Positions 5,496 to 55,617 of a stretch of 64,000 nucleotides of DNA are shown piece by piece (the first letter of the stretch is position 1; each line of letters starts with the position of its first letter). A model generated the notes under the pieces. That model was given only the letters and a program-made list of their open reading frames with translations. It ran no database searches and had not been told where the DNA came from. The stretch is taken from NCBI RefSeq assembly GCF_051903065.1, contig NZ_CP178438.1; one strand, 5' to 3'. The stretch is from Escherichia coli. Its GTDB lineage: Bacteria; Pseudomonadota; Gammaproteobacteria; Enterobacterales; Enterobacteriaceae. The translations under genes and the position numbers were made by a program.

Positions 5496-6185
5496 ATGGC
5501 TAACGAATTAACCTGGCATGACGTGCTGGCTGAAGAAAAGCAGCAACCCTATTTTCTTAATACCCTTCAGACCGTCGCCAGCGAGCGGCAGTCCGGCGTC
5601 ACTATCTATCCACCACAAAAAGATGTCTTTAACGCGTTCCGCTTTACCGAGTTGGGTGACGTTAAAGTGGTGATTCTCGGCCAGGATCCTTATCACGGAC
5701 CGGGACAGGCGCATGGGCTGGCATTTTCCGTTCGCCCCGGAATCGCCACTCCTCCGTCACTGCTGAATATGTATAAAGAGCTGGAAAATACTATTCCGGG
5801 CTTCACCCGCCCTAATCATGGTTATCTTGAAAGCTGGGCGCGTCAGGGCGTTCTGCTACTCAATACTGTGTTGACGGTACGCGCAGGTCAGGCGCATTCC
5901 CACGCCAGCCTCGGCTGGGAAACCTTCACCGATAAAGTGATCAGCCTGATTAACCAGCATCGCGAAGGCGTGGTGTTTTTGTTGTGGGGATCGCATGCGC
6001 AAAAGAAAGGGGCGATTATAGATAAGCAACGCCATCACGTACTGAAAGCACCGCATCCGTCACCGCTTTCTGCGCATCGTGGATTCTTTGGCTGTAACCA
6101 TTTTGTGCTGGCAAATCAGTGGCTGGAACAACGTGGCGAGACGCCGATTGACTGGATGCCAGTATTACCGGCAGAGAGTGAGTAA
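5496..6185 (+). CDS. ung: uracil-DNA glycosylase
   Basis: 229 aa; motifs GQDPYH and HPSPLS. Confidence 0.95.
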
Positions 6186-6232
6186 ATTTGCGGGAAAATG
6201 CCGGATGGCAGAGTTGTCACCCGGCTGATTTA

Positions 6233-7270
6233 TCAGGCTTTATTCTGACGCCACCATTCACCAAGCAAAACGCCTGTTGCAACAGAGATATTCAGCCCGG
6301 CAACGTTGCCCGTACCGTCAATCTTCACGCGCAGATCGTTCGGATCGCGTGCGGCATCCGGTAACCCTTCATATTCCTGACCCAGCACCAGTACCATTTT
6401 CGCTGGCAGACTGGTTTTGAACAGCGGCTTACCCTGCTCGCTGGAAGTTGTCACTACGGTGTAACCCGCCTGACGGAAATCATCCAGCACGTTAACAATG
6501 TTGTCGCCAGTAATCGGCTGAACGTGCTCTGCGCCGCCTTCTGCGGTACGGATAGCCGCACCCGACTCCAGCAGTGCCGCATCCTGCACCACAACGCCTT
6601 TCACGCCGAAGTGCGCGCAGCTGCGCATCATGCCACCCAGGTTATGCGGGTTAGATTCGTTTTCCAGTGCTAGAACGCAATCCTGCGCACCTGCCTGGCT
6701 TACCCACTGCTGCACGGTTGTGCCATTACGCTTTTTGATCAGGAAGCAAACGCCGCCGTGATGTTCCGTGCCTGACGCTTTTGTCAATTCCGCTTCATCC
6801 ACCACATGGTACGCTTTTCGGTTTGCCGCCATCCAGCGCAAGGCTTCTTTAAAACGTGGCGTTACGCTCTGGATAAACCAGGCGCGAACAATCGCTTCCG
6901 GACGGCTCTGGAACAGTGCCTGACATGCATTTTCGCCGTAGACGCGGGTTTCTTCCGCACGCTGACGACGCAAAACTTCTGGATCAATAAAACTTTTACC
7001 ACTGATGCCACCGTGATCGGCCTTTTCCGGCGTCTCATCACCCGGCGCGCGGGAAACCGTGCGCCACGGCGAATCTTCCCACTTGCGGTCACGGGGCTGA
7101 CTCTGTTTGTCATCGCGGGCGGGGCGACGGCCACCGTCAGCACGAGATTTTCCTGGACGCCCGCCCCCTTTCCCGGTACGCGGGTTGTGGGTACGTTTAT
7201 CAGAATCATCATCACTGCGGACATACATCACTTTGACCTTGCCGCTTTTACCTTTCATTTCATCGTTCAT
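6233..7270 (-). CDS. yfiF: SpoU/TrmH-family RNA 2'-O-methyltransferase
   Basis: 345 aa from ATG at 7270 ([10 protein letters not shown]...), basic Arg/Gly-rich N-terminal region plus SpoU methylase domain. Confidence 0.85.
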
Positions 7271-44135: not shown

Positions 44136-44498
44136 GGGGCTGATTCTGGATTCGACGGGATTTGCGAAACCCAAGGTGCATGCCGAGGGGCGGTTGGCCT
44201 CGTAAAAAGCCGCAAAAAATAGTCGCAAACGACGAAAACTACGCTTTAGCAGCTTAATAACCTGCTTAGAGCCCTCTCTCCCTAGCCTCCGCTCTTAGGA
44301 CGGGGATCAAGAGAGGTCAAACCCAAAAGAGATCGCGTGGAAGCCCTGCCTGGGGTTGAAGCGTTAAAACTTAATCAGGCTAGTTTGTTAGTGGCGTGTC
44401 CGTCCGCAGCTGGCAAGCGAATGTAAAGACTGACTAAGCATGTAGTACCGAGGATGTAGGAATTTCGGACGCGGGTTCAACTCCCGCCAGCTCCACCA
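44136..44498 (+). ncRNA. ssrA: tmRNA (transfer-messenger RNA)
   Basis: 363 nt from GGGGCTGATTCTGGATTCGACGGG to ...GGTTCAACTCCCGCCAGCTCCACCA; tag-ORF region present. Confidence 0.97.
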
Positions 44499-44621: not shown

Positions 44622-45104
44622 ATGGAAGAACTTCACTTTGTTTACATCAATGCAAATGGTCGTATCGGTGTTCACTCAATACAGAGCATCAGTTATAGCG
44701 AAAATCATATACAGGGCATTTGTAAGAACACCGATCGAATAAAAACCTTCCGAAAAGACCGCATTCTTAAACAGTACGATTCACCAGAACAAGCCATTCA
44801 GGAATGCGCGTCATTCCTCCCCGAAAACTACTCACATCTCACTAAGCAGTCTGGTCCGAAAAAAAATACATTCGATGTGTGCTTCACCGGATTTAAGAAA
44901 GCAGATAAAGAAAGATTGGTTGATAAGGCGAATGAACAAGGATTAACGGTAAGAACCTCTGTAACCCAAAGCCTTCAGATGCTCTGTTGCGGTTACAATG
45001 CAGGCCCATCAAAAGTATCGGCAGCCAGGATGAAAGGCACAATCATCATAGATGAGCCTGGCTTTATACATTTTCTTGAAACGGGTGAGATCCCAGATGA
45101 ATAA
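44622..45104 (+). CDS. hypothetical prophage cargo protein, WYL-like N-terminal domain plus BRCT-like C-terminal domain
   Basis: 160-aa ORF with AGAGG 10 nt upstream of ATG; N-terminal ...DRIKTFRKDRI resembles the WYL-domain RxFRxDRI strand; C-terminal FDVCFTGF...GLTV...GPSKVSAARMKGTIIIDEPGF resembles the LigA-type BRCT fold pattern. Confidence 0.6.
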   Translation: MEELHFVYINANGRIGVHSIQSISYSENHIQGICKNTDRIKTFRKDRILKQYDSPEQAIQECASFLPENYSHLTKQSGPKKNTFDVCFTGFKKADKERLVDKANEQGLTVRTSVTQSLQMLCCGYNAGPSKVSAARMKGTIIIDEPGFIHFLETGEIPDE

Positions 45105-45130: not shown

Positions 45131-45349
45131 TCAAAAATTCATATGCCCCTGACCACCTGGCAATGGATGTGGAGGGGCTGTAGCAATCAATGCAGGTGTC
45201 ACAATAAACCGGACCACTGTTTCATGGGTAACAAAAGTGCTCCCGCAGTTAATATTTTGGCACTGGCAGTAACGCTCTTTGGTGCTTTCTGTTACTTGAA
45301 AACTGCTCCTTGTGTGCGCCGCATGACCACACTTCGGACAATTCATCAT
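45131..45349 (-). CDS. ogr: Ogr-type zinc-finger late-gene activator
   Basis: From ATG at 45349 (or 45346): MMNCPKCGHAAHTRSS...KERYCQCQNINCGSTF...PHPLPGGQ matches the P2 Ogr CxxC-N22-CxxxxC pattern; ORF-track GTG extension rejected. Confidence 0.85.
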   Translation of the reverse strand: MMNCPKCGHAAHTRSSFQVTESTKERYCQCQNINCGSTFVTHETVVRFIVTPALIATAPPHPLPGGQGHMNF

Positions 45350-45417
45350 ATCCAGATCCCTACCTTTGCTATCAGAATCATTGTAATGATACACAAAATA
45401 TCAATATTGAGAACACT

Positions 45418-50557: not shown

Positions 50558-51073
50558 TCAGAGGCCGAGTGCGTTGCGGTGCGCTTCCATCAGGTCCACA
50601 CCGTCCACAATTTCCACCATGTTGATAAGGTCCACTTCATAGAGCACCTCACCATTGATAGTCAGCTTCGCGTAGCTGTTGGTACTGGTCACTTTGGTGG
50701 TGTTGCTTTCGCCCGTCTTCCACTCGCCGGAATCCACTTCTTTGTGACGTCCACGCACCACAAGCTCCACGGCCTGCACTTCTCCGGTATCGTCACGCTG
50801 GATAGAGCCGGTGAAGCGCAACTGGATGCCATCCACCGTGGCTTTGCCCATCTGTTTAAACAGCAGCAGTTCAGTACCACCAATGGAAAATTCTGTGTCC
50901 AGCGCACTGTCATCAAGCCCCAGATCCACATCCACTGCACCCGGCATTCCGCCGCCGCGATACTTCTCATATTTGCGGGTGAATTTCGGCAGCGTCAGCG
51001 ACTCAACGATCCCCTGCCAGTTGTTCCCGTCATTAAACAGGTTCAGGTGTTTTAATTTGCGTGGTAAAGCCAT
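50558..51073 (-). CDS. FII: tail tube protein (P2 gpFII-like)
   Basis: 171 aa immediately downstream of the sheath gene. Confidence 0.85.
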   Translation of the reverse strand: MALPRKLKHLNLFNDGNNWQGIVESLTLPKFTRKYEKYRGGGMPGAVDVDLGLDDSALDTEFSIGGTELLLFKQMGKATVDGIQLRFTGSIQRDDTGEVQAVELVVRGRHKEVDSGEWKTGESNTTKVTSTNSYAKLTINGEVLYEVDLINMVEIVDGVDLMEAHRNALGL

Positions 51074-51082
51074 GTTGTCCCC

Positions 51083-52255
51083 TTACGCGCTGACCTGGCT
51101 GGAGAAATTCACCAGGTACTGATCGGTGATGCGCTGACGCAGCATCAGGTTTTCAAGTGGCGGCACTGGCGTGTAGTCGTAGTCGATGGTGAGTTTTCCG
51201 GCTTTCAGCGTGTCTTTGTCGTTCACCGACTCATCCAGCCAGCAATCACCACCAATGAGATAGCCCTGACTGACCAGGCTGCGCATTTTGGCGCGGATAC
51301 CCTCGATAATGTCGCGGGCCAGCGACGGATTCAGCGGTTTATCCACCGCCCACATGTGCGCTTCTGCCATCGTGTCCGTCAGCACCTGCGCCGTGCGGGT
51401 GTAGTTTTCGAAGGCAAAGAGCGGGTCATCACTCAGGCAGCGGGAACCCCAGAAGCGAAAACCGTCTTTGCGGATAAGGGTGGTGACGTCGTTCTGGTTC
51501 AGCAGTCCCGCATCGGTTGCCGGGTCCTGCAGATCCCAGAACACATCAGCAGAAATTCCGGTGACACCGTTAACGCCCACGTTGGACAGGCTTTTGTGCC
51601 ATCCGGTCTGCTCGTCAATTTTGGCGCGCAGACCAAGCGCACGGGCGGTGGCATAAGCCGTTGCTTCGGCATTCAGCACCGTGTCCCAGCCAGTAAAGTC
51701 GGGCCAGATCAGCATTCCTTCGCGCTGGCTGAAGTTTTCACGGTAAGTGATCGCCTCCTGTACCGTCTTGCAGCCATACGCTGACAGGTAGGCAAACCCA
51801 CGCAGGCTTTGCGCCACGCTCAGCAACTCAGTAGCAACGGCTTTGTTATCGTGACCTGGCACGCCGAGAATGCGCGGTTTAACGCCGAGCTGTGTCTGGG
51901 CAGATAACAGGGCTTTCATGCCTGTTTTTTTACCTTCAGCAGTCACTGCGCCGATGATATTGGTCGTGGTTTCTTCTTCCGTTTCACCCTGCGGCACACG
52001 CACAACAACGGTCACTGGTTTTGCCTGGTCAGCGATGGCATCCAGCGAACGGGCCAGCGTGCCGGACTCACCCGCTTTACCGCTGGCAGTCAGCACATCA
52101 GTGATCAGCACGGGTTTATTAAGAGGAAACATTTTTGCATCGGCATCATCGCCCGTGCAGACCATACCCACGATGGCGGTGCTCACCGTGGTAATGGATC
52201 GGGTGCCTTCGTTGACTTCAGCAACGCGCACCCCGTGGTGGTAATCCTGAGCCAT
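51083..52255 (-). CDS. FI: contractile tail sheath protein (P2 gpFI-like)
   Basis: 390 aa, sheath-like sequence, first gene of the FI-FII-E-T-U-D operon. Confidence 0.88.
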
Positions 52256-52331
52256 AGTGGCGAACCTCCTGATTGGATTAGGCTTCGCCCTATGTTGAAG
52301 TGATTGTGCCTGACAAACAGCTAAGCACAGT

Positions 52332-52349
52332 TGTGTCGTTATTCACACA
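52332..52349. promoter_or_regulatory. Ogr-box-type dyad TGT-N12-ACA upstream of FI (late promoter candidate)
   Basis: TGTGTGAATAACGACACA on the minus strand, centred about 85 bp upstream of the FI start. Confidence 0.55.
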
Positions 52350-52397
52350 AAATGACGGTATTTGTCCGCTTACAGGAAAAATCAAAATAATACTGAC

Positions 52398-52964
52398 TCA
52401 GGGCGATTCATTGCTCTCATTCGCCGGAAATTTTCTATAAATGGTAGAAACGCCCACATCAAAAATCAGTGCAATACGCTGTCTTGATTCTCCGGCCTCG
52501 AGTAAACGTCCAATCTGTGCCCACTGTTCGGTGGTCAACTTAGGACGGCGTCCACCTACTCTGCCTTTGGCACGAGCTGCAGCCAGCCCTGCTCTGGTAC
52601 GTTCAACTATCAGTTCACGTTCCATTTCAGCCAGAGCCCCCATGACGTGAAAAAAGAAACGGCCCATTGGGGTACTGGTATCAATACTGTCAGTCAGGCT
52701 TCGGAAATTCACACCACGCTGGCGCAACTCTTCTATCAGCGTAACAAGATGCCGCATACTGCGCCCCAGTCTATCCAGCTTCCAGACAACCAGCGTGTCT
52801 CCTGCCGATAGTGTCCTGAGCAGTTTTTTAAGCCCCGGTCTGTCGGACTTAGTGCCACTGATTTTATCCTCAAAAATCCGCTCACATCCCGCGCAGTTCA
52901 GTGCATTACGTTGCAAATCGGTGTTCTGGTCATTTGTTGACACGCGTACATAGCCAATAAGCAT
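52398..52964 (-). CDS. serine DNA invertase (Hin/Gin/Pin family)
   Basis: 188 aa from ATG at 52964: MLIGYVRVSTNDQNTDLQ... with catalytic Ser region and C-terminal HTH (GVSTIYRKF); ORF-track upstream extension rejected. Confidence 0.9.
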   Translation of the reverse strand: MLIGYVRVSTNDQNTDLQRNALNCAGCERIFEDKISGTKSDRPGLKKLLRTLSAGDTLVVWKLDRLGRSMRHLVTLIEELRQRGVNFRSLTDSIDTSTPMGRFFFHVMGALAEMERELIVERTRAGLAAARAKGRVGGRRPKLTTEQWAQIGRLLEAGESRQRIALIFDVGVSTIYRKFPANESNESP

Positions 52965-53019
52965 GATCAATCCCCTGAATAAAAACCGGGGATGATGCCA
53001 GTTAGCCATTATCTCTGCA

Positions 53020-53045
53020 TTTTCTTAAACGTTGGTTTGGGAGAA
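53020..53045. repeat. hix/gix-like 26-bp inversion site (left)
   Basis: TTTTCTTAAACG-TT-GGTTTGGGAGAA; bottom strand reads TTCTCCCAAACC-AA-CGTTTAAGAAAA; shares 14 bp with the right site in inverted orientation. Confidence 0.75.
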
Positions 53046-53468
53046 GGTTCGGCATTACCCGTTGGTGTGCCTGTTCCGTGGCCTTCTGCAATACCGCCTA
53101 CTGGCTGGCTGAAATGTAACGGTGCGGCTTTTTCTGCCGTTGAATATCCTAAACTGGCGAGGGTTTACCCGACAAATAAATTACCTGATTTACGCGGTGA
53201 GTTTATTCGTGGCTGGGATGATGGGCGTGGAGTGGATAGTGGGCGCGCGTTATTATCAACTCAAACAGATGAATTTAAATCACATAGTCATTATTTCGAA
53301 AGAACATGGGCACAAACTGGATTTGATACAACAGGTGGATATTATCTTTTAGCCGCTGATGTTTCTGGCTCAGTAAATCAACAGAGATCCGATAGCACTA
53401 ACTCGGTGGGGGGGAGAGAATCTCGCCCTCGTAATATTGCATTTAACTATATTGTGAGAGCTGTGTAA
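53033..53468 (+). CDS. alternative tail-fibre C-terminal segment, promoterless in this orientation
   Basis: Frame continuous through the left site; encodes GLGEGSALPVGVPVPWP...LPDLRG...SHSHYF...NIAFNYIVRAV, the P2 gpH-type C-terminal pattern. Confidence 0.75.
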
Positions 53469-54073
53469 TGGATAATGCTGTATTAAATAGCGAACATATT
53501 GCTACGAAGGCTGGAAATGTTACTGTTTATAACTTTGACGGTGAAACGCGAGAGTATATTTCCCCATCTATTGAATATATTGCCGTTGGTGTCGGTATTC
53601 CGGCATATTCATGTTTAGATGCTCCTGCCACACGTAAAGATGGTTATGCTATTTGCCGTTCTGCAGGCTTAAACTCATGGGAATATATACCAGACCATCG
53701 CAGTGAAATTGTCTATAGCACTGAAACAGGAGAATCAAAAGAAATCACAGCTCTGGGGGATTACCCTGAAAATACAACCATTATCGCCCCATTAACGCCA
53801 TACGATAAATGGGATGGTGAGAAATGGGTGACGGATACCGAGGCACAGCGTAGCGCCGCAGTAGACGCGGCAGAAGCACAGCGCCAGTCGCTGATTGATG
53901 CTGCTATGGCTTCCATTAGCCTGCTTCAACTGAAATTACAGGCCGGACGGAAGCTGACGCAAGCAGAAACAACCCGACTAAACGCCGTGCTGGATTACAT
54001 TGACGCGGTGATGGCAACGGATACCAGCAACGCGCCGGGGGTTATCTGGCCAGTTCCACCTGAGATGGTTTAA
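53468..54073 (+). CDS. tail-fibre assembly chaperone (Tfa/gpG-like) for the alternative fibre segment
   Basis: 201 aa, start overlaps upstream stop (TAATG); C-terminal pattern ...TDTSNAPGVIWPVPPEMV typical of Tfa proteins. Confidence 0.8.
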   Translation: MDNAVLNSEHIATKAGNVTVYNFDGETREYISPSIEYIAVGVGIPAYSCLDAPATRKDGYAICRSAGLNSWEYIPDHRSEIVYSTETGESKEITALGDYPENTTIIAPLTPYDKWDGEKWVTDTEAQRSAAVDAAEAQRQSLIDAAMASISLLQLKLQAGRKLTQAETTRLNAVLDYIDAVMATDTSNAPGVIWPVPPEMV

Positions 54074-54225
54074 TCTCAATCAGAATGGGTTCGCCCTTCT
54101 CGTTAACAGATATTTCCATTCCTTCAGGGATTTCAGATGCAGTAAAAAACCAGTTATCTTCTGGTAATTCAACAGCCCCGGTCACGTCATGAAGACCGGG
54201 GATTACTTCAGTCAAAGTAACAGGA
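54042..54225 (-). CDS. short ORF downstream of H (possible truncated or non-canonical Tfa); uncertain
   Basis: Only about 61 codons are open after the H stop in this frame and no ATG with a clear RBS is present; the track's 95-aa ORF overlaps H. Confidence 0.25.
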
Positions 54226-55617
54226 TTAAACAGGCGCACAATAAACTCTCCAAGAAAAAGCACTTGTTGATGGTCTTCCGTCGTACATCTGGCAGCGGAC
54301 ATAAAAACCGGTATTAGTGACCTGGTCATCCACGATCATTGAAACGTGAACGTTATTAGATGTGCTCCCGTAATCCGTTCTTATTCTTTCCGCTATGCTG
54401 ATAAAACGTGAAAGCTTAGGTAGCGCAATTGGATAAACGACTTTAGCCAGTCCATTATCATTAGAACCACCCGTTCCAAAGACTTCTATTGCACCATCTG
54501 ACCAGCGTATCCATGCACCATTGGCATTAGCTCCTCGTTGAATGACATATCTGGCTTCTCCCAAACCAAGGTATGCGAGAAGACCAGCTACATCCTTTCC
54601 ACTCAAATTGGTAAGCGTATTGTCCAGCGGTTGTTTACCTGCCAGCGCATTAAGCATTGTCGTGGCAAAGTTCGGATCATTCCCCAGTGCCGCCGCCAGT
54701 TCGTTCAGTGTATCCAGTGCCGCAGGTGCAGAACCCACCATTGCTGCAATCGCTGATTTCACAAAAGCCGTGGTGGCAATCTGTGTATTGTTGACCGACT
54801 GTGCCGCAGTAGGTGCGGTTGGCGTTCCGGTGAGTGCCGGACTCGACAGCGGCGCTTTCAGTGCCAGTGCATTGTTAATGGTGGTACTGAATTTCGGATC
54901 ATTGTTAATGGCTGCGGCTATTTCTTTCAGCGTGTCCAGCGTGGCTGGCGCACCATTAATAAGAGCCGTCAGAGCCGCCTGAACAAACGCGGTGGTCGCA
55001 ATCTGCGTGGTGTTATTCCCTGCTGCTGGCGTTGGCGCTTTGGGTGTCCCGGTAAACGTCGGACTTTCTTTGGGTGCATACTGTGAATGCGGGTCCGGTG
55101 CGGCAAGATGTTTTGCCATCTGATCATCCGCGTACACCTTCAGCTCCAGTGCCTTGTCATCCACATACTTGCGGGTTGCCAGCACTACAGCAGGGTCGAT
55201 TTTCAGGGTGATATTGTCCGTGCTGCTGGTAATCAGCACCATGCGCACGGTCTGAGTGCGCCCGCTACCTTCAGCCAGTTGCGGCTTATAGCTTTCCGGG
55301 CAGTTGCCCACGGCAATCAATGCCTCGGACTCATCAAACAGGCCCACTTCACGAATCCACCAACCGCCCTCGTTTTCAGGGATCACCTGTTCGGCAATAA
55401 TCTGGCTGCTGTTCTGCGGGTCGATATAGAGCATATTCAGCGCAGCCCGGCGTTTCTCATTTACCAGTGCAGTCTGCTTTGAGTCTGGCGTTGGCAATAC
55501 TCCGCCGCCATCGCCGACCGCCATATGGGTAATTTTTAGCGGCACACCGAGCGCGGCGGCGCTGGCAAGTTTCGCCGCGCCAATATCCGTCAGCAGGGTA
55601 TAAAATTTTGTGCTCAT
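54226..55617 (-). CDS. H: tail fibre protein (P2 gpH-like), currently expressed variant
   Basis: 463 aa; conserved N-terminal part, two about 70-aa Ala/Thr-rich repeats, junction ...AYLGLGEA at the right inversion site, then a distinct C-terminal domain ending YCAPV. Confidence 0.88.
   Translation of the reverse strand: MSTKFYTLLTDIGAAKLASAAALGVPLKITHMAVGDGGGVLPTPDSKQTALVNEKRRAALNMLYIDPQNSSQIIAEQVIPENEGGWWIREVGLFDESEALIAVGNCPESYKPQLAEGSGRTQTVRMVLITSSTDNITLKIDPAVVLATRKYVDDKALELKVYADDQMAKHLAAPDPHSQYAPKESPTFTGTPKAPTPAAGNNTTQIATTAFVQAALTALINGAPATLDTLKEIAAAINNDPKFSTTINNALALKAPLSSPALTGTPTAPTAAQSVNNTQIATTAFVKSAIAAMVGSAPAALDTLNELAAALGNDPNFATTMLNALAGKQPLDNTLTNLSGKDVAGLLAYLGLGEARYVIQRGANANGAWIRWSDGAIEVFGTGGSNDNGLAKVVYPIALPKLSRFISIAERIRTDYGSTSNNVHVSMIVDDQVTNTGFYVRCQMYDGRPSTSAFSWRVYCAPV
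54546..54571. repeat. hix/gix-like 26-bp inversion site (right), inside H
   Basis: TTCTCCCAAACC-AA-GGTATGCGAGAA; 12-bp imperfect inverted half-sites around a central AA, close to hixL as recalled. Confidence 0.75.

Follow-up and report, generated by a model that had tools for sequence, protein, structure and literature searches.

The arrangement in which a DNA invertase gene directly precedes the tail-sheath gene FI of a P2-like phage is already known from the annotations of Fels-2 and SopEPhi and from Egorov et al. 2024, who count DNA invertases as part of what the Z/fun hotspot of these phages contains. In Fels-2, a 'DNA-invertase' is annotated between FI and an inverted pair of gpH-like and gpG-like genes, and orf34 of SopEPhi is annotated as a 'putative fragment of DNA-invertase'. 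The interval between G and FI has been named the Z-region (PMC3091744) and 'moron position 2' (PMC3573123). Invertases and fun are mentioned neither by Rousset et al. 2022 (PMC9122126), which covers the old/tin locus only, nor in a 2026 preprint on P2/P4 defence hotspots. In P2 itself, G is followed by a terminator, by fun(Z) on the opposite strand and then by pF and FI; the gap between G and FI measures 2,377 bp. The P2 record therefore bears out the statement, in an earlier note on the DNA studied here, that P2 holds fun(Z) between G and FI.

The window analysed in this study is a 64-kb stretch of Escherichia coli DNA, the right half of which is a P2-like prophage adjoining the tmRNA gene (44136-44498). 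The prophage is of the Elveevirus/Fels-2-like type and is integrated at ssrA. Its nearest deposited phages belong to Elveevirus, such as Escherichia phage Cartapus, with 96.5% identity across the matched parts. Fels-2 too is integrated at ssrA; its record annotates attP ends only. The late genes of the prophage lie on the minus strand in the order D, U, T, E, FII, FI, the interval, the invertible region, H, I, J, W and V. At the other end of the prophage, a 160-aa open reading frame (44622-45104, plus strand) lies between the tmRNA gene, which marks the prophage end, and an ogr-like gene (45131-45394); its sole match is a sub-threshold one to BRCT (E 0.0011), and it is a candidate for accessory cargo of the att-proximal prophage end. 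The features from FII to H are as follows.

50558-51073, minus strand: FII, the late gene beside FI
51083-52255, minus strand: FI, tail sheath (Pfam Phage_sheath_1, Phage_sheath_1C and Gp18_domIII_N)
52256-52397, minus strand, 142 bp: FI late promoter region (pF equivalent), GC 0.42, with a conserved activator element
52398-52964, minus strand: serine DNA invertase of the Gin/Cin/Pin/Hin family, 188 aa (Pfam and Gin structure match)
52965-53019, minus strand, 55 bp: leader from the crossover site to the invertase start, with block-wise homology to the Mu gix-gin leader
53020-53045, 26 bp: left (invertase-side) crossover site, TTTTCTTAAACG TT GGTTTGGGAGAA
53046-53468, plus strand: silent alternative tail-fibre C-terminus (Pfam Collar, E 2.4e-14)
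53468-54073, plus strand: silent tail-fibre assembly gene of the alternative cassette (Pfam Caudo_TAP, E 1.5e-30)
54042-54239, minus strand: small open reading frame of 65 aa, its GTG start overlapping the stop of H (GTG and stop codon confirmed)
54226-55617, minus strand: H tail fibre as currently assembled (Pfam Phage_tail_fib at the N-terminus, E 2.8e-64)
54556-54581, 26 bp: right (H-side) crossover site within H, TTCTCCCAAACC AA GGTATGCGAGAA

We consider it very probable that the interval before FI holds the recombinase of a tail-fibre host-range switch of the Mu-G, P1-C and e14-P type, which replaces the simple H-G fibre end. The 188-aa invertase would bind both 26-bp sites, at 53020-53045 and 54556-54581, and strand exchange at their matching central AA/TT dinucleotide would then flip the segment of about 1.5 kb between them. 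Behind the constant part of H, such a flip would put one fibre C-terminus, with its chaperone, in place of the other; H is predicted to stay in frame either way, and the change of orientation would switch host range. The architecture of such a module would put the invertase just beyond the distal segment end, on the fibre-gene strand, and would thus bring it to the end of the tail-fibre operon, immediately ahead of the FI late promoter.

The interval at 52256-53019 runs exactly from the FI start codon to the left crossover site, since FI begins at 52255 and the site starts at 53020. FI is the first gene of the F late operon and forms the right-hand fixed border of the variable interval; the FI of the window shares 90-99% identity with FI of its IMG/VR relatives. 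Upstream of FI, a TGT-N12-ACA element, TGTGTGAATAACGACACA, lies at 52332-52349 on the minus strand, 77-94 bp from the FI start. Its TTGT...CA columns are invariant when the element is aligned with the activator site annotated for P2 pF, with Fels-2 and with five relatives that have differing upstream genes. The stretch 52256-52397 is thus the FI late promoter, carries no invertase sequence and closes the variable region on its right side.

The invertase gene itself is intact. The open reading frame at 52398-53009 (minus strand) matches Pfam Resolvase over the N-terminal catalytic part (E 2.9e-53) and HTH_7 at the C-terminus (E 1.7e-15), and searches of the NCBIfam profiles returned distant sub-threshold recombinase models only. 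Residues 1-184 match the Mu Gin structures 3uj3 and 4m6f (E ~1e-92), and the Ser9 active-site context, MLIGYVRVSTNDQ, aligns to Gin. By tblastn, the protein is 74.6% identical to Mu Gin, 79.1% to P1 Cin and 86.3% to the Fels-2 invertase, and its residues 1-186 are 99.5% identical to the annotated invertase of Cartapus. Homology supports a start at the MLIGYVRVS codons (52964), which gives a protein of 188 aa: this start fits both the Gin alignment and the 567-bp coding sequence that is annotated at the same position in Cartapus and in UPEC-245U, Z226-7 and EC444, so that the upstream ATG at 53009 is not the start. The DNA of 52256-53019 is 99.5% identical in the last three, which are E. coli strains. 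Within the invertase gene, the part that matches the annotated P7 cin enhancer (nt 19-86) shows good conservation, yet it is coding sequence, and its conservation is uninformative because nt 19-86 is also under coding constraint. By inference, the invertase may depend on Fis and an enhancer.

A scan of 52100-54700 for sigma-70 promoters and terminators found no promoter-like minus-strand site in the 55-bp leader of the invertase gene; the sole minus-strand sigma-70 match of the scanned region falls within the invertible segment. The promoter of the invertase is presumed to lie in the leader or over the crossover site. The earlier note had described the interval as the invertase gene and its promoter. 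The gene is confirmed, at 52398-52964; 52256-52397 is the FI late promoter, and the leader shows no sigma-70-like site. The same scan detected a weak terminator-like hairpin in the leader, at 53003-52984. In addition, within ATCCCCGGTTTTTATTCAGGGGAT, just upstream of the invertase start (52965-52990), ATCCCC could pair with GGGGAT and bury the Shine-Dalgarno sequence. Such a hairpin or pairing (52984-53003 and 52965-52990) may limit read-through into the invertase gene or its translation.

Our sequence analysis of the adjoining region reveals the other parts that such a switch requires. A 27-nt inverted repeat, 53020-53046 against 54555-54581, is 81% complementary and contains the two crossover sites. 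Their inner half-sites are complementary at 12 of 12 positions, both cores read AA from inside to outside, which is the arrangement required for inversion, and both can be aligned with gix of Mu. The constant part of H extends from 55617 down to the right site, and the variable C-terminus occupies 54226-54555, where a weak Gp53-like_C match was found. H now has 463 aa and remains uninterrupted and in frame, with 494 aa, after inversion in silico. The Collar type of cassette, silent in the window, is the fixed fibre end in four relatives without an invertase (L004, L005, L008 and L047). Invertase, sites and inverted cassettes together form one module of lower GC (0.46 for the segment and 0.50 for the invertase) against a backbone of 0.55-0.57. 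The open reading frame at 54042-54239 is presumed to encode the chaperone of the expressed fibre end. In related prophages it is a 198-bp gene for a hypothetical protein (WP_001236015.1) that flips with the segment, and in one relative (L072) it stands in the fixed layout H_C-orf-FI. Pfam and NCBIfam searches of its 65-aa form and of the maximal 95-aa frame (54042-54329) found no family, and an NCBIfam search of fibre chaperones gave nothing; it occupies the position expected of a tail-fibre assembly gene and may be an unclassified short fibre chaperone.

Evidence that such modules flip comes from comparison of genomes. None of the IMG/VR loci carries the same cassette pair at high identity; orientation was therefore tested by querying complete E. 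coli genomes with 52700-54900, both as it stands and flipped in silico, at a coverage of at least 80%. The flipped orientation was found in 38 complete E. coli genomes and the orientation of the window in 19. Two chicken isolates, DG343-1 and DG341-1, agree in genome length and in the protein accessions around the locus, and carry the module beside FI in opposite orientations. Across the 7,273 bp of their loci, the sole difference is a 1,583-bp stretch that one isolate carries as the exact reverse complement of the other, and the ends of this stretch fall at the site sequences that the window has too. This pair shows that a module about 93% identical to that of the window is active. We infer that the window's own copy is probably active in its strain as well. 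A second set of closely related isolates, of human origin, was also noted: near 1.555 Mb, E. coli M7424 and M00057, judged from their query matches, carry a homologous segment in the opposite orientation to M11957 at the same chromosomal position.

What occupies the interval in other prophages was determined from 80 IMG/VR loci with an FI 90-99% identical to that of the window, which were classed by tblastn, inspection of open reading frames, Pfam and site searches. The tally is partly hand-curated and the IMG/VR sample is biased, consisting mostly of Klebsiella and E. coli prophages. In about 46 of the 80, the interval is empty: 119-150 bp before FI lies the end of a fibre-assembly gene or of a second fibre gene, in many cases with a hairpin terminator after it. 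An empty interval is also seen in Klebsiella phage 4LV2017, from the same genus. A full-length invertase is found in 22, ending 143-146 bp before FI; nearly all of these have both paired sites, and most invertase-bearing relatives have a paired site at the junction between the constant and variable parts of H. One further locus (L081) carries the invertase together with an N6/N4 DNA methylase between invertase and FI. Three loci retain invertase remnants: a 3' remnant beside an Acyl_transf_3 gene in L017, the first 53 residues alone in L075, and in L054 a gene split by an internal inversion. In the last (5633-6252), codons 1-87 are inverted relative to codons 85-182, as if a breakpoint lay inside the invertase gene. 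Inverted cassettes with no invertase occur once (L051), and five loci have other cargo and no invertase, namely Acyl_transf_3 genes in L018, L029 and L083 and unannotated membrane proteins in L060 and L082, with a GC of 0.35-0.43. The remaining two fall outside these classes, L044 being rearranged and L068 unplaced.

Two variations of the fibre region itself were seen in the same sample. One locus (L076), whose invertase is 90% identical to that of the window, has three crossover-like sites instead of two, at -2803, -1483 and -771 relative to FI, which suggests a multi-cassette, shufflon-like fibre switch. A sub-lineage with an FI about 91% identical (L055, L059, L062-L065, L067, L069-L071, L073, L079 and L080) has a different fibre region, with a fibre or spike gene of more than 770 aa followed by another fibre gene, about 396 aa long, whose N-terminus is H-like; this other gene ends about 150 bp before FI, and neither an invertase nor Caudo_TAP was seen in these loci.

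Among complete E. coli genomes, matches to the 764-bp interval might include pin of e14, and the count was therefore redone with a 442-bp junction query covering FI, pF and the end of the invertase gene. This FI type occurs in 982 genomes and the junction in 697 of them (about 71%). The adjacency of invertase and FI recurs in four groups of deposited phages: Elveevirus (Cartapus and Kp4850-2), Felsduovirus (Fels-2 and SEN8), P2-type Peduovirus (NC_041848) and one phage of Yersinia enterocolitica. It is absent from the Xuanwuvirus P88, in which FI is located elsewhere. The comparison of the region from FI to the tail fibres that the earlier note had proposed thus shows acyltransferases, membrane proteins, a methylase or nothing alternating with the invertase. 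Its view of the interval as a slot of variable content holds among close relatives, where the interval is empty or contains an invertase, acyltransferases, membrane proteins, or an invertase with a methylase. An invertase universal at this position, with no variable cargo there, would speak against that view; what is seen is an invertase that is common (22 of the 80 IMG/VR relatives and about 71% of the E. coli genomes with this FI type) but not universal, with other cargo in its place.

The observation made in the earlier note is therefore confirmed, and its interpretation, in which the invertase is the cargo of the slot, is partly supported: position and polymorphism agree with it, whereas independence as cargo does not, the gene being part of a module with its sites and cassettes. 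Taken in its strong form, that interpretation makes the invertase an interchangeable moron that fills the Z/fun hotspot as fun(Z), sopE and acyltransferases do, which we regard as possible but doubtful. The gene does occupy the position of P2 fun(Z), it shows presence/absence polymorphism with other cargo in the same interval of close relatives, its GC lies below that of the backbone, and DNA invertases are listed in the hotspot by Egorov et al. 2024. However, it is tied functionally and physically to the adjoining cassettes and sites, and the unit they form is homologous to Mu gix-gin, and Mu has no P2 slot. It also lies on the late-operon strand, which fun(Z), sopE and several acyltransferases do not, and the L081 methylase between invertase and FI is a separate gene, and thus the invertase and the moron slot are separable. 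A moron in the strict sense would be autonomous and without a role in the virion, would typically bring a promoter or terminator and would often lie on the opposite strand. The invertase differs from this: it acts on the adjacent fibre genes, runs in the direction of the late operons, travels with its sites and cassettes, and yielded no promoter or terminator of its own in the scan.

Such observations raise the question of whether the two kinds of content interfere with each other. We tentatively suggest, from three or four anecdotal cases, that the G-FI interval may be contested: gain of a moron or a deletion may repeatedly truncate the invertase and freeze the fibre orientation, which would amount to a trade-off between lysogenic-conversion cargo and host-range switching. 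Truncations at differing breakpoints are seen with sopE in SopEPhi, with the acyltransferase in L017 and with a deletion in L075. To our knowledge, a systematic, selectable trade-off between morons and the switch has never been quantified.

It might also be asked whether the module in the window is a frozen relic, with its invertase or sites inactive and its fibre orientation fixed. Decay of this kind does exist among relatives, as remnants or orphans in L017, L022, L051, L054 and L075 and in orf34 of SopEPhi. For example, L022 keeps a full invertase but has a degenerate H-side site and neither an invertase-side site nor a second cassette, while in L051 the H-side site and the inverted cassettes remain and no invertase is present; invertase and segment can therefore decay independently. 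In the window, the invertase is a full-length frame with the Ser9 context MLIGYVRVSTNDQ and near-identity to the Cartapus protein over residues 1-186, both crossover sites are intact with matching cores, and an exact flip separates sister isolates that have these sites too. We therefore consider a relic quite improbable here. Gin, Cin, Pin and Hin cross-complement one another, and the window cassettes are about 90% identical to segments in the K-12-derived strains DH5alpha and KO11FL, which are annotated as phage tail proteins, a tail fiber assembly protein and a recombinase and which annotation and chromosomal position suggest to be e14. That the invertase acts mainly in trans on host Din-type segments, such as the e14-like P segment, with its place beside FI incidental, is nevertheless very improbable, for a cognate site pair flanks its own segment right beside the gene, and action in trans would be an added effect rather than an alternative.

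Returning to the tail-fibre switch as the preferred reading, several implications follow for annotation and comparison. The interval should be annotated as the FI late promoter together with part of a Gin-type host-range switch, and it represents no new kind of cargo. The term 'Z/fun hotspot' mixes tail-fibre switch modules with true morons, and prophage surveys should score each apart. Furthermore, the receptor-binding end found on the induced phage depends on how the segment is oriented, and this bears on host-range prediction and on assembly comparison of clonal isolates.

Fels-2 (Salmonella Typhimurium LT2, NC_010463; invertase STM2702) and Cartapus (NC_070909, Elveevirus) have a gene order identical to that of the window, I - H - tfa - inverted tfa' - inverted H' - invertase - FI, in which the invertase shares the strand of FI and stops about 100-145 bp short of it; they differ from the window in their fibre cassettes, and the interval itself is alike. 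SopEPhi (AY319521) has a Fels-2-type backbone and, as in the window, invertase sequence directly before FI, but only a fragment matching window residues 113-177, with the sopE cassette between G and the fragment; here a moron has displaced most of the switch. The fun(Z) locus of P2 is the same interval, bounded on the right by pF and FI and of variable content among relatives. Its gene is different, being a 1.6-kb lysogenic-conversion/exclusion gene on the opposite strand, with the V-operon terminator before it, whereas the invertase of the window is co-oriented with the late operons and serves virion fibre genes.

The switch itself is of the same type as the Mu G segment with Gin, the P1/P7 C segment with Cin and the e14 P segment with Pin, and the same invertase family adjoins tail-fibre genes in Mu, P1/P7 and lambdoid phages. 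As a unit, the module is homologous to the switches of Mu, P1 and e14, which sit in phages without a P2 slot. The 26-bp sites of the Mu-type systems and of the window have a common AAACC-NN-GGTTT architecture. Unlike in the window, the orientation of cin in P1/P7 makes cixL overlap the 3' end of the gene. In Mu, the unit of site, leader and invertase start aligns block by block with that of the window, with a site-to-start spacing of 67/68 bp. The Mu order S-U-U'-S'-gin parallels H-tfa-tfa'-H'-invertase, with the invertase in both cases on the fibre-gene (S/H) strand, just outside the distal site. The two diverge beyond this point: in Mu, com/mom follow, whereas in the window the P2-like backbone comes next, beginning with FI and its Ogr-type late promoter.
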